Positions 24,346 through 63,708 of a DNA stretch of 64,000 bases are shown in pieces (the first letter of the stretch is position 1; the number at the start of each line of letters is the position of its first letter). Location: the NCBI GenBank assembly GCA_951406725.2, contig OX597822.1, positions 75,330,001-75,394,000 of the forward strand, read 5' to 3'. This DNA comes from Octopus vulgaris (taxonomy: Eukaryota). Made by a program: the position numbers and the translations under genes. The notes beneath the pieces are model-generated. The model ran no database searches and had not been told where the DNA came from. It saw only the letters and a list, made by a program, of their open reading frames with translations.

Positions 24346-24867
24346 ATTAGACAAATTAATTGGTTTCTATTAGATTCACGTCAGTTTTAAGATTTAATAT
24401 GAGCAGAAAATTAATGTTTCATTTAAAAACTCGTAGCGAATAAATCTACCAATGTATTATTTCCATAAAATTCATGAAAGAAGGAAAGACAAAATTAAAA
24501 TCCATGTATTATCGAAATTTATCTCTAAATGAGATGAAATCACACACATACAGACATACGCACACATACACACACACACTCATACATACACGCACACATA
24601 CACATACACTCATACACTCAAACATACATTCGCACACACTCACACACACACATACACACAAGATGATGTTTACCGCTTTATCATTTCATAGAATCAACAC
24701 CCAAAATGTGTGGAAATAAGATCTTATACTCTGCTGCATGGTTCAGCGTGATTTTATGTCTGAACACCAATAAAATATTCTGTATTTTGAACCTTATGCA
24801 ATCAAATTCATTCCTTGCGTGTCTGTAAAAGAAATATTCTTAAAGATGCATCTAGAAAGATGTTTGT

Positions 24868-25247
24868 TATTTCTTTATTGCTCACAAGGGGTAAACACAG
24901 AGGGGACAAACAAGGACAGACAAACGGATTAAGTCGATTATATCGACCCCAGTGCGTAACTGGTACTTATTTAATCGACCCCGAAAGGATGAAAGGCAAA
25001 GTCGACCTCGGCGGAATTTGAACTCAGAACGTAGCGGCAGACGAAATACCTATTTCTTTACAGCCCACAAGGGGCTAAACACAGAGGGGACAAACAAGGA
25101 CAGACAAACGGATTAAGTCGATTATATCGACCCTAGTGCGTAACTGGTACTTATTTAATCGACCTCGGCGGAATTTGAACTCAGAACGTAGCGGCAGACG
25201 AAATACCGCCAAGCCTTTCGCTAACTATTCTGCAAGCTCGCCGCCTT
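24868..25247 (-). mobile_element. SINE family 2 dimer, both units with Tx1-like tail
   Basis: 12-bp TSD aaagatgtttgt at 24856-24867 and 25252-25263. Confidence 0.85.
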
Positions 25248-39817: not shown

Positions 39818-40286
39818 GCGACGAGCTGGCTGAAACGTTTGCACGCCGGGTGAAATTATTAGCAGTATTTCGTCTGCCGCTACGTTCTTAGTTCAAATTC
39901 CGCCGATGCCGACTTTGCCTTTCACCCTTTCCTGGGTCGATTAAATAAGTACTAGTTACGTACTGGGGTCGATGTAATCAACTTAATCCGTTTGTCTGTC
40001 CTTATTTGTCCCCTCTTTGTGTAGCCCCTTGTGGGCAATAAGGAAATAACAAACGTTAGCACGCTGGCAGAAACACTAGCACGCCGGGCGAAATGCTTAG
40101 CGGTATTTCGTCTGCCGTTACGTTGTGAGTTCAAATTCCGCCGAGGTCGACTTTACCTTTCATCCTTTCGGGGTCGATAAATTAAATACCAGTTACTCAC
40201 TGGAGGTCGATGTAATCGACTTAATCCGTTTTTCTGTCCTTGTTTGTCCCCTTTATGTTAAGCCCCTCATGGGCAATAAAGAAATA
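39818..40286 (+). mobile_element. SINE family 2 dimer with Tx1-like tails
   Basis: TSD agaaaaaatt at 39808-39817 and 40287-40296; tails gccccttgtgggcaataaggaaata and gcccctcatgggcaataaagaaata. Confidence 0.85.
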
Positions 40287-40945
40287 AGAAAAAATTACGA
40301 CAGAAACCACGTTTATAGTCGGGGTAAATATATGGCTAGAATGTTTACAAAAGCAGAAATCGCTGTGGAACCCAGGGAAGAAGAGATTCAGTGGAAGAAA
40401 TAACGAGTTGTTATAATAATAGTTGCAAAGTGCAGAGCAAGGTGTTTGGTGTAATGGAAGTATGAACGCCGAGAGGACAACGTTTTACATGTAAACAAAA
40501 GAACATCAGTTAAATTCAACTAAAAGGCGGTGCTCCAGCATGGCTGCAGTCAACGACTGAAACAAATAAAAGAATAAAACAATATGCTAAATGAAGTTTT
40601 TACAGTGAATACTTTTTTATTTTCAGAGTAGACAATCGGATAGATTACAGAAATTATGGACGTAAACTGCATGTGAGAACAATTTACTTTGCAACCCATA
40701 AAATACTGGTGGTCCCAGTACAATCGAATTTTTTTCGGGGCTGAAATACTATGGAGGGAAATTGCTACCTAAACGGGGTTTTATCGGCGGTGTATGTCTC
40801 AAGAGAGCGTTTACTGACTTATAAGACGGCGCATGTTTTTATACTGAAATGCATCAAAAATGGCCTTGTGTCTAATGCGGACGTATTAATGTCGTAGTGT
40901 AGGGAGCAGGATAAACATAACACCGCTTAGATTAGTAATTGGTAT

Positions 40946-44177: not shown

Positions 44178-45821
44178 GTAGGAGTTCGGGATGGAGTTTG
44201 GGCTTGAGAAGTGTGCCAAGGCCACTTTCCAGAAAGGGAAAGTGAAGACCACAAATTCAGTCATGTTAGACGTTGACACAGTCATAAGAGAGCTTGAGCA
44301 AGAACAAACATACAAATATTTAGGGATAAATGAAGGCTCTGGTATTCAGCATGCAAGCATGAAAGAGAAGATCAGGAAGGAATGTTATAGGAGAGTTTGT
44401 GCAGTCCTGAAATCTGAACTAAATGCACGTAACAAGGTGTTAGCTATAAATTCCTTAGCAGTTCCAGATGTTACTTATAGCTACAATGTGTTGAACTTGA
44501 ATATGAGTGAAGTAAAGAATATAGATAGGAAAATACGCAAGCTGCTGAGTTGTAATAGGATGCACCACCGAAAGCAGACGTAGATTGCCTTTACCTCCCC
44601 AGAGCCCAAGGAGGTCGAGGCCTGACCCAATTTGAACTATCTTACAAAACAACCACAATTGGACTGGCCAAATATCTTGAAATAACGAATGACTGGATGC
44701 TAAAGCTCGTGGAAAATCACGAGAGACGAAAGAAGCTTCATTCTATCATAAAGGAAAGCAAAAAAATTGCTATTGATCTCGTGCAGGATACCCAAACTGA
44801 ACAACCCGAGGGAAGTACGGCAACTATTGTTGCAAAGAAGGTGAAATAATGGCAACGAGAAAAGCGCACGAGCAATTGGCTGATAGGTGGGAGGAGAAAC
44901 CTCTGCACGGCAAATATGTGACCCATAGCAAACAAGCTGATGTTGACCAGAAGCAAACCTATCAGTGGCTACGGAGCTCAGGGCTAAATGCAGAGAGCGA
45001 ATGTTTCATCCTGGCTGCTCAAGATCAAAGCCTATTAACCCGGAACTACCAGGCCAATGTGATGAAAAATGGAGCAAACCCAAAATGCCGATTCTGCAAC
45101 GACATGATTGAAACAGTGAACCACCTAATCTCTGGATATAAAGTCTTAGTACCAGTGGAGTATAAATTAAGACATGACAGAGTTGGCCAATATCTACACT
45201 GGCTAATAAGTCGGCATTACAATATCAAAACTGCCGACAAGTGGTATAATCACCACCCTGAGGCTGTAACTGAAGGAGAAAACGTAACGATTCTGTGGGA
45301 CTTTCCATTACATACGGACCGAACCATCAAAACCAATAAACCGGATATTGTTGTGAAAGACCAAAACAATAAAGTTTGCTTATTGATCGACATGGGCATC
45401 CCCTGTGATCATAATATCTTGGCGAAAGAGTTTGACAAGCTCAGAAAATATAAAGACCTGCTCATTGAAACTGAGAAAATGTGGCATCTCAAGGCGGTTA
45501 CAATACCAGTGATCGTAGGAGCACTAGGAATGATCAAGAAGGGAACCGAAAATAATATGAGAATGATCCCTGGCTTACCATCCCTGCAAGAAGTGCAAAA
45601 GATTGTCTTAACTGGTACATCACACGTATTGAGAAGAGCATTGTCGATGTGAGTACTATTACTACCCATGTATTTTAATTTAACTTAAAAAAAAAAATGG
45701 ACGAACTAGTGAGTTTAGTTTAATGGCCTACCAATGTATACTATGAGTTTCTTTGCCCTAGGAGTCGGGAAGACACTCGGCAAGGAATGGAAGCAAATTT
45801 GAAAGAAGAAGAAGAAAAAAG
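44178..45821 (+). mobile_element. 5'-truncated R4/Dong-clade RLE non-LTR retrotransposon
   Basis: RT thumb FGMEFGLEKCAKA, YKYLG, LYLPRAQGGRGL; knuckle CRFC..ETVNHLISG; RHD; RLE WDF..TDRTIKTNKPDIVV..LLID..K..KY. Frameshifts near 44575 and 44850. Flanked by (TAA)n on both sides. Confidence 0.9.
44849..45652 (+). pseudogene. R4/Dong ORF C-terminal part (zinc knuckle plus restriction-like endonuclease)
   Basis: 267-aa ORF with the motifs above; the last knuckle Cys is mutated to Tyr. Confidence 0.85.
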
Positions 45822-47966: not shown

Positions 47967-48013
<47 letters not shown>

Positions 48014-48747
48014 TAGCATTAAAGACCCGTCGTTGCCGGGTCATAGTGCTAGTGCATGTATATATGTGTATATATATGTGTACATATTACATGTACATCT
48101 ATATATATATACATCTACACATAAAATACAAAATACAAAGTTATATCTTGATATCGCTAGTGATAACAATACTAAAAATATATAACAGACTGGAATTGTT
48201 AGCCCGTCTCTTGTAATTTCGATCAATTGTATCTTGTCCTCCCTCTTGTATAGAAGTGTGGCTACAATCCAGCCTACCTCTACTTCAGGGGGGCGGGCAT
48301 TTTCAATTTTTTCCGGGACGTCCTACGTCCCAGATATAAAGGTAAAAGTAAAATATTTCCACTTTGCAAGTTCGAGTCGAGTATTCCCTTGCACGCTCCA
48401 TTGACTCGAACTTTGCTTCTATTGTGGCGAATTTACCGCCTCTGATTAGATACCTTTCATAGTCGCACCAAGACACTTTTCGAAGGTGCTTTCCTCCATG
48501 TTGTTTTATTATTACCCACAAGGGGCGAACATAGATGGGACAATACAATCTGATGATGGGGTCAGACACACGAATGGGTTTTTACAATAAATCGAATTTA
48601 AAAATTTTCATGAATTACAATAAATGGACAGAAATCGAATGATGGGACAGACCGGAAGACATTACGGGTGGAGTGGGTGCGGGTTTAGCTCGGACCCCAC
48701 GAGCCCCGCCTCCCCACTGATACTTTTGGTTGCGCTTGGTATTACAT

Positions 48748-51700
48748 TTATGTTGTATCTTTCACTCGCAACTTTCGTGCTACATCCTTCCATCGTTCTT
48801 CATACACTCTCCTAGTCAGGCATATTCTCTCCAGCCCTATCTTCCTTTTCAGGTGAAAGATGAAATAATTCATCAAACCAGGGCCGGAGATGAACTTGCC
48901 TGACTGTAAACCTTTCATTCTCGTCTTCCATATCACCTCTTTCGCAATTGCTACTACAACGAGAAAACGAAACTTACCTTCATTCACGAGGAAATCCGGT
49001 GGGTCAATTTTTGTAATCGACTCAGTCGACAGCTGTACTCTTCGTGTACCTGACAACAGCTGTTCGGCATAAACCCACACCTCAGACACGTCCGGACAAT
49101 GAACAATAGCGTGCGGGACGGTTTCCCTATCCCGCCCGCATCTTGGACATATCGGACTGTCTTGGCCACCGTGCCTTGCGAGTTTATCCCGAACAGGTAG
49201 AGCTCCTCTGTAGCATTGCCATGCCAGAGACTTCTGGAAGTTGTCCAGTGTCCTCGGCTTGAACGTACGTCGGAACAGACTGGCCAGCTGATTATCGTCG
49301 AGACCTAGGGTTTCCCCCAAGGTATCTTCACATTCCGCCTCTACCAACCCTCTATAGAAGAATGTGGTGGAACCCCCACCGCAGGCGTTGCCCGAGCGAC
49401 GGAATAGCAGGAGAGCCTTGCGACACTCCGTGTACCAAGTACCAAGTTTCGATCTACGATTCAGCCAGGTTTCCCATCCACCGAAACTAGTGAACTTGGG
49501 AAACATCAGTTTTGCTAGCGAAGACCACACCCGTTCACCATCCAGGTAGAGCCACAGATGTCTTAACCTCAGCGCATGTCTGCGCATCATCAGCCAAGGC
49601 ATCCCTAGCCCACCCTTTAACGGTTGTTGACAGCAAGTAGAGCGTTTCACAAGTGGTTTCCCGCCCTTCCACAAGAAGTAGAAGAGCTGTCTTTCCAACT
49701 TGATCAACCACGAATCAGGGCAAGGAACGACGGAAAGGCGGTAGGTGATAACCGATGCGATAAACACATTGGCCACCTCCGCCCTCCCTTTCAGGGATAG
49801 CCACCGCCAAGACCAGGTCTTGGCTACTGCAGCCACCTTGCTCGTTACCTCGCCCCAATTCTTCTCTATTTGGAGGTCTGGACCGAACCAGACCCTAGCA
49901 GTTTAATCGGACCCTCCGTCCAACGTCCCACGACGCTGTCAGGAGGCATCGACTTGCCTCTCCAGGTGCCGAGTTGCAAGCCGACTGACTTTTCGCGATT
50001 AACTTTTGCTCCTGTCACCGTCTCGTAAACCTCTATGGCCTTGCCTACTTTACATAGGTGGTCCATTTCGGTTACGATGATGGTGATGTCATCCGCGTAC
50101 GCTGACACTGATTTTCCATTACCTGGCTGTCGGGATGCCGCTCAGTTTTCGCAGTAATGGCTCAAGAGCCATCACGTACAAAAGCGGGGAGAGCGGACAC
50201 CCTTGACGAACCGAGCGTTTGATTTTGAACGGCTTCGACAAGAAGCCGTTCACCCGAACTACCGAGTCGATGTTATCATAAATTTGGATAATCCACCTGA
50301 GGAAGCCAAGGCTCAGCCCGAACTGTGCCAGGGCAGATACCAGGTAACGATGGTCGACCCTATCAAAAGCTTTAGATTGGTCTAAATGGACCAGTGCCCC
50401 ACCCTTGCCAGAATCACTATTAAACCCCTCTATAGTGTACCGCATTAGATGGAGATTATCCTGAATGGATCTGCCCGGAACGGCACATGTCTGTGCCTCT
50501 CCGATCAGACCATCCGCGACACGCGCCAATCTTTTCGATAACACTTTGGCCAAAATCTTCAACTCTGTGTTTAGCAGAGTGATGGGCCTGAAATTATCAA
50601 TGCACTCCCCCTTGCTCGGGTCCTTTCTGACGAGAGTCACTACTCCCCGGCGCACAGATCTGGGTATAAGCCCGTTCTGCTGCCAGTTCGCATAGACCTC
50701 CGCCAGTAGGTGCCCGAACAAGTCTGGCATACTCTTATATAACTCATAGGGTAGACCATCCAAACCCGGCGCCTTGCCCGCGCCGCAGTCCGCCATTGCT
50801 TCAACCACATCCTCAGGCGTGATTGGCCCTTCACAGCCCTCCGCATCTCGCCCCGATAAGCGCGGCAGCCCGTCGAGTAGGTCCGTAAAGGTCCTCCTCC
50901 TATCCAGTCCGCCGCACTCACCGAAAAGCTGAGCGAAGTGCTCCTGAAAGGCCTCACACATCTCCTCGGGTTCGTTTATCAACTCACCTTGTTGGTTCGT
51001 CAAAGATCGAATCGTGGCATCGTTACCATGCTGAGCTTCCACCACTCGGGCCCATCTCACGGCGTTGATTCCTTCACATCCCATATGGCGGATTCTAGCC
51101 CTGACAATGCAGCCCATGTGTTTGGCCTCGAGGTGCTGGTTTAACACCAGTCTCTTGGACGCCACCTGAGCCGCAGAGCCAGTTTTCATGGCTTCCTCTA
51201 ATTCCTTAACTAGAGTAGTTTCCCTTCTAGCCTCTCTAGCCACTACTCCTATGCTATATCTAATAGACTCAAACTTGATGGCTCGTTTGAGGGCGTACCA
51301 CCATTTGTTATTAATGATGGTACCAGATAGTGCCCTCTGAATTATATTCCTAATCCGGTCTTTGTACTCCTTAATCGCCAAAAGGGACGTATTAAGTTTC
51401 CAGTAACCGGATCCTCTATTTTTAACCTTATCTATGTCAAGCTTACAAGTGACCATTTTATGATCACTGTAGCTGATCGGGTAAAACTGTGGACACTTAG
51501 CTATTTTACTGTCTACTTTTCTAATTAGTATTCTATCTAAATATGACCTGGAAGATCCGTCGCTGTTTGACCATGTCCACAATGGAGCGTTCGGAAATTC
51601 CAGCCTATAAGGATCTGCTAGCTCAAAGCGGCTTAGCAGTTCCATGAAGCCACTGTTGCCTTTTCTATCTGGACGCGAGCCAACACAATCTACATCCGCT

Positions 51701-52140
51701 TTGCAAATTGTGTTAAAGTCTCCTAGCACCACTAATGAATGCGAAGTACCAAGAAAGTTTTCTAGTTCACGAAAATAATCACTTTGCCCTGTATGGTTGG
51801 GTGCGTAAATTGCAACCAGTCTGATAACTTTACCATTACTGAACGTCAAATCCATGACGACCAGCCTACCTTCTGGATCTGCAAAAATTAACTTTTTCTC
51901 AGAAACCCGGTTTCTTTTTAATAGGACCAACACCCCACTCCCGCCTGTAGGACTGCCAGGAGAGAAAAAACTCTCGTAGCCGTCAAACAGCGGGAGTAGA
52001 CCTCTTGGCCCCTCTAACCGGGTTTCTGTAGCAACAATAACATCTAAATTACGCGACCTGATATCATGCAGGAAGCGACCTTGCTTCCAGCCTGCTCCCA
52101 GGCCGCGCACATTCAAACAACCAACATAAATGTAATCCAT
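48748..52140 (-). pseudogene. Tx1 ORF2: APE endonuclease, reverse transcriptase and C-terminal zinc finger (2 frameshifts)
   Basis: LNVRGL, ATET, IYAPN, GDFN, YLDRI, SDH (APE); KAPGLDG, FRPITLLN, DQSKAFD, RQGCPLSPLLY, YADD (RT); GGLG; CPRC..ETVPHAIVHC. Frameshifts near 50125 and 49892. Confidence 0.93.
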
Positions 52141-52149
52141 TACTTACCT

Positions 52150-53527
52150 TTATATCAGTGGTTCGGTTTTCTCTTGTTCTTCTAACTCTTTTTCTGGGCC
52201 TCGTGGGGGAGTCTGACGTAGGCCCTCGAATATATGTGGAGATGTCACATCCAATCTAAGTGGGCCTACGTCATGGAAGAATTCTGACTTTATCCGCCCG
52301 TAATCCTTCCGGCCTATTCTGTAAATTACAAAGTCGTTTTTTTTCACTACTTTCTCCACTTTGGCCATGGCTGCCAACACGTTTCCGAGTCTGCTATTTG
52401 CTGCCTTTACGGCCATATACGAGTTCATTGACTCTTTTTTCTTTTTTAAAATTACTCTGGGAGGGGTGGTTTCCGTTTTTCTTTTTTTTTTCCCGGTAAT
52501 TTTTGCCCACCCCTCCTCATTTATCTTTTCCTCGCTCTTTTTTTCCTCCGCCGCTGGTTCTGCTGTCACCGTCACCTCCACACCTTCAGTCTTCCTTCTG
52601 GGCCGTCCGACGCTGCTTCTGGTGACACATTATCTTCTTTTTCTTTTGGCTTAGGTGCTTCCTGCGGTTTGGGTTGGGGTTGGCATTCCGCCCTTACATG
52701 ACCCTTCTTGCCGCAGCCGAAGCACCTCGGCTTCCTGCCCTCCACGAAAACTGTTATTTTCTCGTCTTCACTAATCTTTACCGTTTCTGGAATTTCTTCC
52801 AGTGTTTGCACCTCCGCCTGAATGGCTATCACTATTTTCTGCCCTTTCCAAAACTCCTCTTCCTCCACTGTGGCCTGGAGGATGTTTATTTTTTCCTCCA
52901 GACCTACCATCACTGCTGCCACCAGACATTCTGCATCTGCCTCTGGCGGTATGTTGTTCATTGAAATTTTCGACGTCCTTTTTCCTTTATACAATGGTAG
53001 TAAGACAATGTTTTCTGTTTTGATCGGCTCCATCGATAGTTTTTTCGCTATCTCCTCCGTAGTAAAACGCACCTCCACTGTGCCGTATCTTTTTCCTCTG
53101 TTTATATACGTTATTTTATCCATAAAAGGTTTTAGACAAAACTCTATTTTTTTTCTTCGATTTTTTGGATCATTTTTGTCGTTGTGTCGTAAGTTTTATA
53201 TATTATTCTTTTTTTTTCTATATCGTCATGTTTTTGTATGTTTGTGGCCACAGTCACTTCTGTGCCCTCTTTTTTTACACAGTCTGCAAATTTTTCCAAA
53301 TTTTCTATATTTATTTTTTTAATCTTTTTCCCAGCCACTTCAGCGAATTTTTTCGCTGGAGTTGATGCTGGTACTGGTTTTTCCATTTTCTTGGGCGACG
53401 CCGCCTCTTTTTTCTTCGGCGACAACGCCTCTTTTTTTCTTGGCGACAACGCCTCTTTTTTTCTTGGCGACAACGCCGGGTATTCATCCTCGCTCGTCAC
53501 GGGCGAATAAGAGATGGGGGACTCCAT
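52150..53527 (-). pseudogene. Tx1 ORF1 (gag-like: RRM-like region plus CCHC knuckle), 2 frameshifts
   Basis: Three consecutive ORF pieces; knuckle CFGCGKKGHVRAEC; ATG at 53527; stop 9 bp before the ORF2 ATG. Confidence 0.85.
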
Positions 53528-53743
53528 CTTGAACAAATGGCTTTAACAAGCCTTTGGTAAATCCAAATTAATTGTAGTTTTCCCCCACGGAGGGGGGAAC
53601 ACCAACGCGAAGGCCGACTTCGTCAGTTAGACAACAATAGACAAAACAGGTAGACCAACAGTATATAATAACAGAGATAATAGTACGAGAGCAAAAATAT
53701 ATCAACTTACTAATAAACGCAAAAAATTGATTTCCTCCATGTT

Positions 53744-55417
53744 ATTTCTTTATTACCCACCAGGGGCTACGAAGAATGGCGGACATAACAAAACATGGGG
53801 GACATAGAACAATATGATTAAATTTATGAGCAAATGAAAATGAAAAAATGATAATATGAAAGCGATGCTAACGGCCCCCTCCGCCAGCATCACTTATCTG
53901 TCCTTTTGTTTTCACTGTCACCTGAATGTTCATTCCCAATACGAAGACCATCCATATCCATTCTTACTCCGAAACTGTCCTCCATATATTCCACGAATTC
54001 ATCGCTCATTCTTGTATCTTTCACCTCCCAATTCTCCCTTCACACCTCAACACAAACTCATCTATATTCTTCTTTTCCAGCACTGCATATCTGGTCCCAT
54101 CCATTTCATACCATTCATACTCCTCCATTACCCTTTCAACCTCTTTCTGTTCAGTCACAATATAAATGTTCGGCCTGGGTTCGTTTTCAAACTCTTGTCT
54201 GTCTGTATTATTATTTTTCTTTTGTTTTCTTGTTGGAGGGGAGCGGGTGGGTTCACTGTCTGCAGGGGGAAGGGTGGGATTCAGAGGGTGCGGGTGGTGT
54301 TGGGGTGGGTTGGGGCTTCGCACAGTTTTTCTTTTTCTTTCTTTTTCTCTTTTTTCTTCCTTCTTCCCACTCTTGTTGCATCTCCTCTTCTTCTGTCGTT
54401 TCTTTTCCGTTTGGTTCTCTTTGGTTTCTTCCTCTTTTGGGGCTTCCGCGACGATTTCCTTTTCTTTTTCCTTTGGTGGGGGAGGGCAGTAGGCTCTTAT
54501 GTGACCCCTCAAGCCACACTTGTAGCACCTGGGCGCCCTACCCTCCACCCACACTCTCATAATAATATTTCCAGTTTTTATACTGTCCGTAAGCTTTTCT
54601 ATAACTTCCGCCTCCGTCTGTATGTTCATTACTAGTGTGGCACCTCTCACGCCTTCATATTTCATAATGGCGTGGAGGATGTCCACTTTATCTTCATTTC
54701 CTTTGATAACCGCAGCCGTTATTAATTCGCCCTCTAGGTGTGGAGGTATTCCTTCCACCCTAATTCTGGTGGTCCTTCTATTCAAATACGAGGGGAACAA
54801 GTAAAACTTTTCTGTACTCACCACCTTGGCTGCTATATTCCTGGCTGCTTTCTCACTTTTAAATTGTACCGTTATGGTTCCATATTCTAATCCTTTTGTC
54901 ATGTACACAATTTCTTCTCCTGTCTGTTTGAAAGCCTCTTCAATTGCTTCCATGTTAATCACTTCCATTTTTCTACCTCCATTCATAAATACTTTATATT
55001 TAATGGTTCTACGATGGAACCAGTCTCCGCGCCCTGCTAGAGGCAACAGCTCAACCTCTCCGTTCTCCTCCTCCTTCATGAACTCCTGGAAGTCCGTCAA
55101 CTTAGCCAGGTCTATCTCTTTTTCTGTTGACTTCTTCGTTATACCTGCGTAGGTGCTTTCCATTTTTTCACCGCCAACTCCTCCTCAGATGTCGACGAAT
55201 TTTCAGAGAAATTTCTCCCTTCCATCTCATCCGTTTGGTAGAGGCGGCTCATAGTCGCCTCAGACCGAAAAACGGCCTCCCGAACAGAAAACGTGCGACG
55301 CACAGAACCAGTGCGACGCGAAACCGCACCAAAACGACGTTCCAATTCCGCAACCACAATTCACTTTTTGTTCTTTTTTCTTTTTTAACCGAATTTTACA
55401 GAGCGCAAAAAAACGCG
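53744..55417 (-). mobile_element. ORF1-only non-autonomous Tx1-derived element (unit B)
   Basis: 5' end cgcgttttttt; ORF1 with CYKCGLRGHIRAYC; about 145-bp 3' UTR ending tagcccctggtgggtaataaagaaat; no ORF2 sequence. Confidence 0.85.
53890..55163 (-). pseudogene. Unit B ORF1 protein (frameshift near 54035)
   Basis: 380-aa ORF continues in another frame as ENWEVKDTRMSDEF...KRTDK-stop at 53890; collinear with unit C. Confidence 0.8.
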
Positions 55418-57131
55418 TATTTCTTTATTACCCACTAAGGGGCTACGAAGAATGGCGGACATAACAAAACATGGGGACATAGAACATTATAATTAAACTT
55501 TATGAACATGAATTGTTAAACGAAAAAAATGATAAAATGAAAGCGATACCAACGGCCCCGTCCGTCAGCATCACTTACCTGTCCTTTGTTTTTCATTGTC
55601 ACTTGAATGTTCTTTGCCAATACGAATAAATTCCATATCCATTCTTACTCCGAAATACTCATCCATATTTTCCACGAATTCATCGCTCATTCTTATATCT
55701 TTCACCTCCCAATTCTCCCTTTCACACCTCCCCATAAACTCACCTATGTTCTTCTTTTCAATCACAGCATACCTAGTCTCTCCAACATCATACCATTTAT
55801 ACTCTTCCATTAGACTTTTAACTTCTTTCTGTTCAGTCATAGTACAAATGTACGGCCTGGGTTCGATTTCAATCTCTTGTGTGTGTGTATTCTTTTTTTT
55901 CTTTTGTTTTCTTGTTGGGGGGGAGCGGGTGGGTTCAATGTCTGCATGGATAGGGTGGGACTCAGAGGGTGTGGGAGGTTTTGGGGTAGATTGGAGTTCC
56001 ATATTATTTTCTTTTTTTCCACATATTCTTCTCTTCCTCTTACTTCCAGCTTCCTTCCATTTCTGTGTATTCTCTTCCTCTGTTTCCTTCTCCTCTGGTT
56101 TCTGCTTCTCTCTCTCTGGTTCGGGATCCATTTCTTTCCCTGGGGGAGGGCAGAAGGCTCTTATGTGACCCCTCAGGCCACACTTGTAACAACGTGGAGC
56201 CCTGCCCTCCACCCACACTCTCATGATCACTTCTCCCAGTCTGATGCTTTCCGTCAGGTCCACCAGTACCTCGGTCTCTGCCTGTACGTTCAGCTCCACT
56301 GTTACGCCTCTCCAGCCCTCGGACTTAACCGAGGCATGGAGAATATCCACTTCGTCCTCGTGGCCGCTGATCACAGCCGCCACAATCCATTCTGCCTCCA
56401 CGTTTGGTGGCACTCCCTCCACCCTTATTCGTGTAATCCTCCTGTTTAAATACGTAGGTAACAGTGTTACCTTTTCCGACTTCACCGCCTTCGCTGCCAT
56501 CTTCCTCGCTGCAGATTCACTTTTAAAGTGCACAACTACGGTCCCGTACTTGATCCTCGAGTCAGAAAATTTATTTCCTCCTCAGTTCTTCGCAGGGCTT
56601 CCTCTATCCATTCCATGGATACAACTTCTACCCTCTTCCTTTCGTTTGCGCACACCCTGTAAACAATGGTCCTCTTATCATACCATTCTTTTCTCCTGGG
56701 TGTCGGTGATAGTTCCACCTCACCGCTTTCCTTTTTCATGTATTTCTGGTAACTTGGCAACTTGGCCATGTCGACCCCTTTCTCTTCCGCCTTCTTGGTT
56801 ACACCGGCATAGGTATAACCCAGCTTGTCTTCCATTTCCTTGCTGCTATTTCTAGCTCCTCTCAGACGTAGGCAAGTCTGTAAAGACTCGAAAACTCAGC
56901 TTTCCTCCATCAGCTTCACTGCAATTGCCAGTTCCTCATCCGTCGTGGACAGGGAGACTCATAGTCCATTTCCTTCTGTCTGACAGACCGAAAACGGCCG
57001 CCAAAACAGAAAAAGTGTAACGCGCTGAACGAGCGAAACGCGAAACCGCGTCAACGCCGTTCAGAATTTCCACAACAACAACAACGCTTTTTGTTCTTTT
57101 TTACCGAATTTTCAGGAGCCGAAAAAACGCG
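55418..57131 (-). mobile_element. ORF1-only non-autonomous Tx1-derived element (unit C)
   Basis: Same 5' start (cgcgttttt) and near-identical 3' UTR to unit B; ORF1 with CYKCGLRGHIRAFC. Confidence 0.85.
55571..56835 (-). pseudogene. Unit C ORF1 protein (frameshift near 56550)
   Basis: 99-aa and 320-aa ORF pieces homologous to unit B ORF1. Confidence 0.8.
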
Positions 57132-57775
57132 ACCTTTCTCTACATTGTATACTTTATAGACAATAGTCTTTTCTTTAATTTAATTTTTTATTATCCATCT
57201 GGACTATTCCATTTCTGCACGCTAATTTTATTTTAAATTTATTCCCATTCATGTGAAACCACTTATTCAAGTTCAAATCACTGATGCAATTTTATACCGA
57301 TTGCTATTTTTACTTTTGCCATGTTACTTTAGTTTGATTTTAATTATTAGTTACTACATATAATTCAATTGTTATTATTATTTTTATTGTTAAAGTAAAA
57401 GTATCTGACATAAAATAGAGAAACGTTTTTGTTTCACTTTTAACACGTAATACTGAAATAGTGGAGAAGATATGATATTGCTATGGGCTCGCTCTAGGCA
57501 AGAAATTGAACACTTTTTTGCCCATGAAACTACATGGACCCTAAGTAAGGCATGTGTAAAATTTGAATGGAATTGGTTGTGTAGTTCTCAAGTTTTAGGG
57601 AATCGTAGTGGAGAAGATATGATATTGCTGTGGGCTTTTTTGCCGATGACACTCCCCGGAGTAAGGCATGTGTTAAATTTGAATAAAATTGGTTGTATAG
57701 TTCTCAAGTTTTAGGGAAACACACAGACAGACAGTCAAACACACATTCTCAGTTTTATATATATAAAGATATATA

Positions 57776-58235
57776 CGAGAAAAACGCACCCCACGTCCAA
57801 TTGACGTTGCTGAGTTGTCAAACATTTAAACCAAATTTTCTCAAAACAACATGTCCGGCTATCCCATAGGCCTCCCCTTTGAGAAACACTGATTTAACCT
57901 AAATTTGAGACACCAGCGAAAGAAGAAATAAAGATAGACATTTTTTCTATTCCAAAGAAAAACGATTTTATTCACACAAATATGTAACCGAAGAGTTTAA
58001 AGTACCAGTAAGTACATCGCGACAGCTGATGTGCTTGCGCGTACAAATGCACGTTCCCACGGGTTTATCGATCGCATTCTCACCTGGAATCGATTTTTGT
58101 AATTTTACCAAGACTTATACACGCTCTGATACCGTCGGTATCTACATATCAAATTTGAGCGCAATCGGATGGAGGATGCCCGAGATCCTAGAAGACACAC
58201 ATACAGACAGACAGAACGGATTTTATATAATATAT
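57776..58235 (-). mobile_element. Helitron-like non-autonomous element
   Basis: 5' tataaaatccgttctgtctgtctg on the minus strand; 3' hairpin acgtcaattggacgt and CTCG|T end. Confidence 0.45.
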
Positions 58236-58608
58236 ATATATATAAATAAAAAGATGAAGTTGTCTGTGTATGGCAGGTTTGGTAGCCTTCAACTAACACT
58301 ATCTCCTCCGAGACCCTGCAGCGCAAGTTGACCAAAATTGAGAGTATGATAGAAGAACGCTTGTTCTTCCTTCCGTAGAAGAAAAATTTCAAATCGGATC
58401 ATGTTAACACCAAAAATTATTTACATCAAAAATCCCTATTTTTTACGATTTTTTGACTGCTGTGTCGCCATTTTTCGGTGTATTCCAACCAGAAAAAAAT
58501 GTTCACTTAAAGAGAATAACAAGCTACATAATGCAAAATTTTTACTTTTCAAAAATTCCAATTCTAAAGGGTCGAAACAAACCCGAGCAACGCCGGGCGA
58601 AACTGCTA

Positions 58609-58609
<1 letters not shown>
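58236..58609 (+). mobile_element. Non-autonomous Helitron
   Basis: 3' acccgagcaacgccgggcgaaactgCTAG|T; 5' region gaagttgtctgtg resembles the 5' end at 37237. Confidence 0.75.
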
Positions 58610-58673
<64 letters not shown>

Positions 58674-63092: not shown

Positions 63093-63708
63093 AAGGCAGC
63101 GAACTGGTAGAAATGTAAGCACGACTGGCGAAATGCTTAGCGGTATTTCGTCTGCCGTTACGTTCTAAGTTTAAATTCCGCCGAGGTCGACTTTGCCTTT
63201 CATCCTTTCGGGGTCGATAAATTAAGTACCAGTTACGCCATGGGGTTGATGTAATCGACTTAATCCCTTTGTCTGTATTTGTTTGTTCCCTCTGTGTTTA
63301 GTCTCTTGTGGGTAGTAAAGAAATAGGTATTTCGTGTGCCGTTACGTTCTGAGTTCAAATTCCGCCGCGGTCGACTTTACCTTTCATCCTTTCGTAGTCG
63401 ATAAATTGAGTACCAGTTACGTACTAGGGTCGATGTAATCAACTTAATCCCATTGTCTGTCCTTGTTTGTCCCCTGTATGTTTAGCCATTTGTGGGAAAT
63501 AAAGAATTAAGAAACGTTAGCACGCCGGGCGAAATGCGTAGCCGTATTTCATCTGTCGTTACGTTCTGAGTTCAAATTCCGCCGAAATCGACGTTGCCTT
63601 TCATCCTAACAGGGTCGATAAATTAAGTACCAGTTGCGTACTGGGGTCGATCTAATCGACTGGCTCCCTCCCCACAAAATTTCGTCTCTTTTGCCTAGAG
63701 TAGAAAAG
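63093..63708 (+). mobile_element. SINE family 2 trimer (tail A, tail A, tail B)
   Basis: 16-bp TSD aattacaccaatgaat at 63077-63092 and 63709-63724. Confidence 0.85.

Follow-up and report, generated by a model that had tools for sequence, protein, structure and literature searches.

The origin and persistence of LINEs that encode only ORF1 is an open question in the field, and the locus described here raises it in concrete form: are two short ORF1-bearing units next to a full-length element the products of a local deletion, or families that multiply as ORF1-only elements? The window, a stretch of 64,000 nucleotides of Octopus vulgaris contig OX597822.1, carries on its minus strand, in this order, unit C, unit B, an 11-bp copy of a target sequence, the full-length element A and a second copy of the target (Table 1). 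B and C are head-to-tail units with the common start CGCGTTTTT. They align at 76.7% over 1168 nt, whereas their last 65 nt differ by one substitution, two 1-nt indels and one end gap, so that the common start and the almost identical ends over diverged bodies, described in an earlier note on this DNA, were seen again. The length of about 420 aa which that note gave for ORF1 needs correction, as intact copies elsewhere give 454 aa for B and 472 or 454 aa for C, the frameshifted window copies having longest open stretches of 380 aa (B) and 309 aa (C). The note was right that the two units are real; it overlooked the Helitron that hosts them, the further families and the long arrays found across the genome.

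Table 1. Positions in the window of the C-B-A array and of the Helitron arms around it (a caret marks an element boundary).
Feature	Position	Strand	Remarks
Helitron 5' arm	57135..57769	-	Starts A^TC; final ~40 nt belong to a decayed ORF1-like fragment
GGT at 5' junction	57132..57134	-	At least 12 bases found before the target in empty Helitrons are absent here
Unit C, ORF1-only element	55418..57131	-	3' tail abuts the 5' end of B directly
ORF1 of C	55571..56969	-	472 aa in intact copies; frameshifted in window copy
Unit B, ORF1-only element	53744..55417	-	5' end adjoins the tail of C
ORF1 of B	53890..55252	-	454 aa in 11/30 copies; frameshifted in window copy
Shared 3' tail ending B (CCCC-loop-GGG, then AATAA)	53744..53775	-	Motif also ends C (55418-55450) and A (48501-48530)
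Upstream copy of target duplication CATGGAGGAAA	53731..53741	-	Same duplication at the A-only loci L205, L208 and L215
Unit A, full-length APE-RT non-LTR element, L1/Tx1 group	48501..53730	-	
Reading frames of A	ORF1 from 53527; ORF2 52140-48748	-	Both frameshifted in window copy
Downstream copy of target CATGGAGGAAA, 11 bp	48490..48500	-	
Helitron 3' arm	48013..48500	-	Rest of the ORF1-like fragment, hairpin 48024-48042, CTAG^T end

Searches of the genome gave 39 matches to B with at least 90% identity over at least 1500 nt, on 18 contigs (a lower bound, 39 of 571 candidates having been scored), and 53 matches to C in 18 scored regions. B-type tails occur exactly 51 times and A/E'-type tails on the target 86 times. 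A 26-nt motif common to B, C and a further family, F, has 318 occurrences, mostly in polar head-to-tail arrays, and the 100 motif matches listed represent 30 loci of 1-14 units. Amongst these 100, 66 have another unit within 2.1 kb, 30 are terminal units that end in the tail or adjoin a Helitron arm, one more was read within its array, and two gaps of 2.7 and 3.5 kb are too short for ORF2. No ORF2 follows 99 of the 100, the remaining one being an inverted match; an autonomous parent varying within the motif would escape this count, which covers 100 of the 318 matches. Additionally, tblastn detected no trace of ORF2 in any of 96 half-element units (96/96).

Eighteen arrays read in detail contained the further ORF1-only families E, E', F and G, with units of 1.67-1.93 kb, and at least five ORF1-only families (B, C, E, F and G) are present. 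The order within arrays is stereotyped, (G/F/C)n-B-(E)n-A, with half-elements downstream of A in only 1 of the 11 fully read arrays containing A and, in the arrays read, no B-B pair among the window-type B copies. The loci are mostly far from contig ends and not telomeric. The longest array among the 100 listed matches (G000:C2:138769614-138792484) has 14 consecutive C-type motif matches about 1.75 kb apart, followed by A. Another array (G000:C1:74677611-74683803) includes one inverted motif match, possibly a product of twin-priming or rearrangement. At G000:C4:80136746-80145303 (L073-L074), five C units form an array, and a Helitron arm was detected at neither end of it, which suggests that they stacked on a founder outside the target.

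Adjacent ORF1-only units would also result if ORF2 had been deleted locally and the remainder then multiplied by tandem duplication or unequal crossing-over. Some of the relationships between units have this appearance: the nearest relative of 7 of 55 array units, including a run of F, is a unit of the same array, and the runs of F indicate that units are sometimes duplicated locally or drawn repeatedly from one source. The other 48 units, however, are nearest to a unit of a different array, the array label undergoes 41 changes against 41.5 after shuffling, and synonymous change between B and C is saturated. As a general cause, local deletion is therefore refuted, and we leave it hardly any probability.

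Direct evidence of retrotransposition came from the tails. Of the 51 exact B-type tails, 30 were examined. Twenty-six of these adjoin the target or another unit, and the four others end off-target copies that are truncated at the 5' end and bordered by duplications of 6, 15, 16 and 18 bp at ACAT-like sites. Two off-target copies, of 317 and about 1400 nt, extend far enough to include the junction of ORF1 with the 3' UTR. The precise 3' end, the 5' truncation and the target duplications support the amplification of half-elements as ORF1-only units by retrotransposition. The earlier note had read B and C as a non-autonomous ORF1-only lineage without ORF2, and had proposed a search for copies with their own target duplications. 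Such copies exist, in the form of the four off-target ones. The findings that it had listed as contrary to its reading, namely single-copy units or relatives with ORF2 between ORF1 and the 3' UTR, were not encountered, B and C both being multicopy and the 99 matches mentioned being free of ORF2. Together with the selection on ORF1 described below, these observations uphold the lineage over a local deletion.

Full-length ORF1 has been kept in 11/30 copies of B (454 aa), 22/57 units of C (453-472 aa), 6/11 of F and 4/9 of G. The dN/dS of the ORF1 core is 0.11 for B-F, a comparison that is unsaturated (pN/pS 95% CI 0.06-0.24), and 0.11 again for B-C, which is near saturation (pN/pS 0.27-0.41). 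Within C, two copies gave about 1, at a distance at which the ratio is uninformative. The values of about 0.11 between families indicate that purifying selection acts on the half-element ORF1 cores; a value near 1 had been named beforehand as evidence to the contrary. With synonymous change saturated between them, B and C thus fit the proposed pair of diverged, constrained subfamilies better than a fresh duplication. The homology of their ORF1 to that of the adjacent autonomous element was also recovered, at 33-41% identity to A-family copies, as was the CCHC knuckle, present once as CX2CX4HX4C with a weak Pfam zf-CCHC match (E 0.04-0.06).

A structure predicted for the core of B ORF1 from a 7-sequence alignment (mean pLDDT 77, pTM 0.50) resembles tandem-RRM proteins (best Z 9.5, rmsd 2.1, 81 aligned), a resemblance to generic RRMs, and the predicted architecture of B ORF1p is two RRM-like domains and one CCHC knuckle. 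L1 ORF1p was absent among the fold matches listed for this model. Mammalian L1 ORF1p is not known to have a CCHC knuckle. The core of B is F-like (93% aa) and its C-terminus C-like (dS 0.41 vs 2.4 in the core), which indicates exchange of modules between families; tails and C-terminal modules appear to have been swapped among them. A further subfamily (L129, L131, L133, L135 and L140) was observed to have a C-like body (88-89%) with a B-type tail.

The ORF1 tree has three groups, each flagged as supported: A; B/C/F plus one relative; and E/E'/G. These are separate deep branches, 27-41% identical, and Octopus bimaculoides proteins nest inside the E/E'/G group, so that the ORF1 lineages are old. 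A word-based protein search with B ORF1 returned only three partial octopus matches, whereas a profile search returned 1680 at E 0.001, and among the 10 of these that were looked up 7 were from Octopus and 1 from Argonauta. The named relatives come from these two genera. Three ORF1 relatives (P0153, P0165 and P0001) carry host-gene annotation, one of them being named EPM2A-interacting 1-like.

The whole C-B-A array sits inside one non-autonomous Helitron (57769-48013), recognisable by its 5' TC, 3' CTAG, subterminal hairpin and insertion at A^T. Among fetched loci, A^TC was found in 47/57 distinct 5' termini and CTAG^T in 81/87 distinct 3' termini. Empty copies of this Helitron read ...GATTTGAACA^CATGGAGGAAAGCACC at the target, and the genome contains 391 exact occurrences of the empty junction and 359 of its downstream half. 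Amongst the exact Helitron sites on contig C1, 11/30 are occupied, 8 of them by A, 1 by B and 2 by E. Part of the Helitron is a decayed ORF1-like fragment (tblastn E to 2e-11 against A-family ORF1), and it is here that the target is located; the ancestral target may have been the ORF1 of a related element. In the window, this Helitron middle (57132-57170 and 48200-48500, minus strand) consists of a decayed piece of ORF1 from the same LINE group; the site of insertion in it matches the position where the ORF1 of B also reads AACATGGA. Just upstream (about 58230-58610, plus strand) is a second short Helitron-like element in the opposite orientation, with a hairpin and a CTAG^T end, 77% like the end of the host Helitron.

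The units might instead be passengers that owe their numbers to the rolling-circle transposition of a composite Helitron, itself the product of a few founding insertions. A base-identical 5' junction at many loci fits this explanation, as does the correlation of B and flank distances (rho 0.60), although star-like trees would give the latter too. The ages do not agree with it: B copies are 1.3% apart and the 3' arms of their Helitrons 6.5% (same 17 loci), and in the comparison with 5' arms the values are 1.2% and 3.0% (same 11 loci). The flanks are thus 2.4-5 times more diverged than B, which supports B copies being younger than the Helitrons around them. Filled and empty Helitrons are moreover intermixed on the flank trees, which are star-like with few supported branches. 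Fill state on a weakly resolved tree of 78 3' arms changes 36 times, against 36.7 after shuffling, and one supported clade of that tree holds empty, A-, B- and C-filled copies. Support values on such star-like trees are compatible with a junction class having arisen once. The arrays differ in content at almost every locus, and the off-target copies with duplications and the five-unit array with no Helitron arm detected likewise speak against passengers. We consider this explanation largely refuted and very improbable.

How units come to be joined can be read from their junctions. Insertion of A duplicates 11-13 bp, as seen at 3 A-only loci among the 12 loci fetched, and where B, C, F or G occupies the first position, at least the last 12 bases before the target are replaced by GG(T). 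Across 116 junctions in 18 arrays, the tail type predicts the sequence that comes next. ACATG-type sites follow 19/19 A/E tails and 13/13 B tails (11 classified automatically and 2 read by eye), F and G tails mostly precede a CGCG/CGTG start (20/23), and each of the 7 units with its start at C position 98 comes after one and the same variant of the C tail (7/11 vs 0/105; 4 arrays). Because the tail type sets the next site, the upstream unit would seem to have chosen it, pointing to sequential insertion with growth mainly upstream. Against upstream growth, for which the case is one of junction logic, no age gradient was seen along the arrays (private mutations, rho 0.10, p 0.48, n=50), and in one array half-elements lie on the downstream side of A. 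Seven internal junctions contain pieces of the Helitron 5' arm, and two junction variants are found in 13/26 filled loci and 0/39 empty sites, scattered on the flank tree. These pieces and variants suggest Helitron-derived 5' extensions on the RNA; host-derived 5' extensions have been argued for SINEU and R2 in the accessible text of PMC4494074.

The same arrays could be cDNA concatemers, in which the reverse transcriptase of A starts at the target and jumps end-to-end onto further RNAs in one event, leaving A last. A is indeed the 3'-most unit in 10/11 fully read arrays containing it, many junctions lack a target duplication, and the missing age gradient and the lack of a significant between-array difference likewise favour single events. 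Template jumping is documented for R2 in the part of PMC3414825 consulted. The tail type, however, fixes the exact joining position in the next unit, a rule more readily explained by sequence-specific insertion than by random jumps. A is missing from several arrays, and one array mixes units 78% to 100% identical to their references. Sequential insertion is preferred for these reasons, and concatemers are an unlikely source of the arrays.

The enzymes required for such insertion would be supplied in trans. The ORF2 of A matches Pfam Exo_endo_phos, RVT_1 and zf-RVT, that is, an APE endonuclease, a reverse transcriptase and a C-terminal zinc finger, a combination also found in the L1 clade, and among solved structures it is closest to L1 ORF2p (E 9e-65). 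At least 120 further relatives were listed, none of them bearing a clade name. A has a fixed site in the Helitron and hence a target-sequence preference, which is typical of the Tx1 clade according to passages of PMC4494074, and within the L1/Tx1 group it likely belongs to that clade. ORF2 of A is intact (1131 aa) in 2/11 copies and its ORF1 unbroken in 0/11. Runs of six or more A in ORF1 number 13-16 in A, 2-3 in B, C and F, and 9 in G. A dependence of A on half-element ORF1p was considered and rejected, since the breaks in A ORF1 fall at different A-runs and dN/dS is 0.03 between A subfamilies. An unrelated non-LTR element is represented in the window by a broken C-terminal part (44191-45652, plus strand) with a weak zf-RVT match; from its motifs, we take it to be of the restriction-like endonuclease type.

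All families share the CCCC-loop-GGG-AATAA tail, which is likely a signal for the ORF2p of A and is also found in an abundant SINE-like repeat. Its hairpin is weak (about -4.5 to -10 kcal/mol) with alternative folds, and Rfam gave no match in window 39000-64000. The SINE-like repeat occurs at window positions 39825-40291, 63142-63506 and 24865-24913, often as tandem pairs, with the tail for example at 40025 and 40263, and may be copied by the enzyme that serves A, B and C. From the common tail and target we infer trans-mobilisation of B and C by the ORF2p of A, the A family, as the sole autonomous family weighed, being the likely enzyme donor.

A different autonomous family could be the donor of these otherwise real half-elements, or the constraint on ORF1 could have been inherited from unseen autonomous parents. 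The deep separation of the ORF1s of B/C/F, E/E'/G and A would be in keeping with this, and PMC13282606, in the text available, gives O. vulgaris 80 L1-Tx1 consensus families. Against it, A has the same target and tail as the half-elements, 99 of the 100 listed B/C/F motif matches are without a following ORF2, and many young copies have a full ORF1 (in the proportions given for B, C, F and G). We regard other donors or parents as improbable and retain A.

Altogether, we consider it probable, and with good confidence, that the ORF1-only families insert at one Helitron site and at the 5' ends of resident units, using the enzymes of A by way of the shared tail; of the direction of array growth and the identity of the donor we are less sure. 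In the proposed mechanism, transcription of a unit likely begins within the Helitron arm upstream of it or within the preceding unit, and its RNA is likely coated by the half-element's own ORF1p, predicted as RRM-RRM-CCHC, which would be why ORF1 stays under selection. The ORF2p of A would then bind the tail and nick at A^CATG or similar sites. A and E, by duplicating CATGGAGGAAA, would regenerate the target, whereas B would consume it and leave a CGCG start as the base for stacking by C, F and G, so that arrays likely grow mainly at the upstream end and acquire the order observed. The 5' junction likely arises when Helitron-derived sequence on the RNA anneals.

Each ingredient of this system is known from HAL1, HeT-A or transposon-targeting Tx1 elements, and ORF1-only LINEs, transposon-targeting Tx1 and tandem arrays at targets have all been described in the source texts as available (including PMC4640811). 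We found no report of the combination, which is apparently unreported within the published text searched; this text contained no description of ORF1-only Tx1-type families, of a Helitron target or of such cephalopod arrays, and Repbase, Dfam or supplements could hold consensuses. Such units are liable to be annotated as host genes or truncated LINEs. The Helitron joins the targets of site-specific LINEs, and the arrays provide a natural set of tail-to-target rules. There are at least three deep ORF1-only lineages away from telomeres, with hundreds of young copies and with empty and filled sites side by side, which makes the persistence of ORF1-only LINEs testable by population genomics and a trans-mobilisation assay.

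As in elements of the HAL1 and HeT-A type, ORF1 is present in the octopus units, ORF2 is absent, the units have been retrotransposed and ORF1 appears to be under purifying selection. HAL1 (half-L1) and the CR1-derived Ag-Sponge are non-autonomous LINE derivatives encoding only ORF1p, as described in portions of PMC5753468 and PMC5786205, and in this respect they resemble B and C. The source clades given in those portions are L1, Jockey and CR1, and not Tx1. Unlike HAL1 and Ag-Sponge, the octopus units have a fixed Helitron target and build long arrays.

Closer to A are Xenopus Tx1L in Tx1D, crocodilian Tx1-Mar and SINEU in Mariner-N4, and Tx1-9_AMi in Harbinger, which, in the available text of PMC4494074, target non-autonomous DNA transposons and have partners that share the target, form tandems and can carry host-transposon 5' extensions. 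In those cases, the partners are non-coding SINEs and the hosts given in that text are piggyBac, Mariner, Harbinger and LTR elements rather than a Helitron, whereas the octopus target lies within a captured ORF1-like fragment. The R1 arrays of 28S rDNA, as presented in part of PMC3414825, likewise intersperse an autonomous element with non-autonomous ones (R2/R1 SIDEs) in tandem at one target, with target duplications between them. SIDEs, however, are short and non-coding and their target is rDNA, whereas most C/F/G junctions use the 5' end of the previous unit and not a duplicated host target.

The telomere elements of Drosophila, HeT-A, TART and TAHRE, offer the nearest parallel. In the sections available of PMC5537684 and PMC13534243, they combine ORF1-only elements and autonomous partners in same-direction head-to-tail arrays, and include several ORF1-only families, some derived from other ORF1-only families; polar arrays of this composition and multiple ORF1-only families are also features of the octopus loci. 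HeT-A proper was rejected as an identification of the octopus units, their loci being mostly far from contig ends and the partner ORF2 L1-like. The Drosophila elements belong to the Jockey clade, occupy chromosome ends and have a long 3' UTR, whereas the octopus units are interstitial, on many contigs, with a 3' UTR of about 150 nt and endonuclease-type junctions with target duplications. Whether the octopus system is an interstitial counterpart of the Drosophila one, with ancient ORF1-only lineages, one autonomous family, a Helitron as landing pad and promoter and family-specific stacking rules, is to us an evenly balanced matter. If so, the Tx1 clade would have yielded its first ORF1-only group, and the loss of ORF2 would be favoured by life in shared-target arrays and not by telomere function, for comparison with a 2026 survey whose accessible text describes repeated ORF2 loss in telomeric but not in non-telomeric Jockey elements (PMC13534243).
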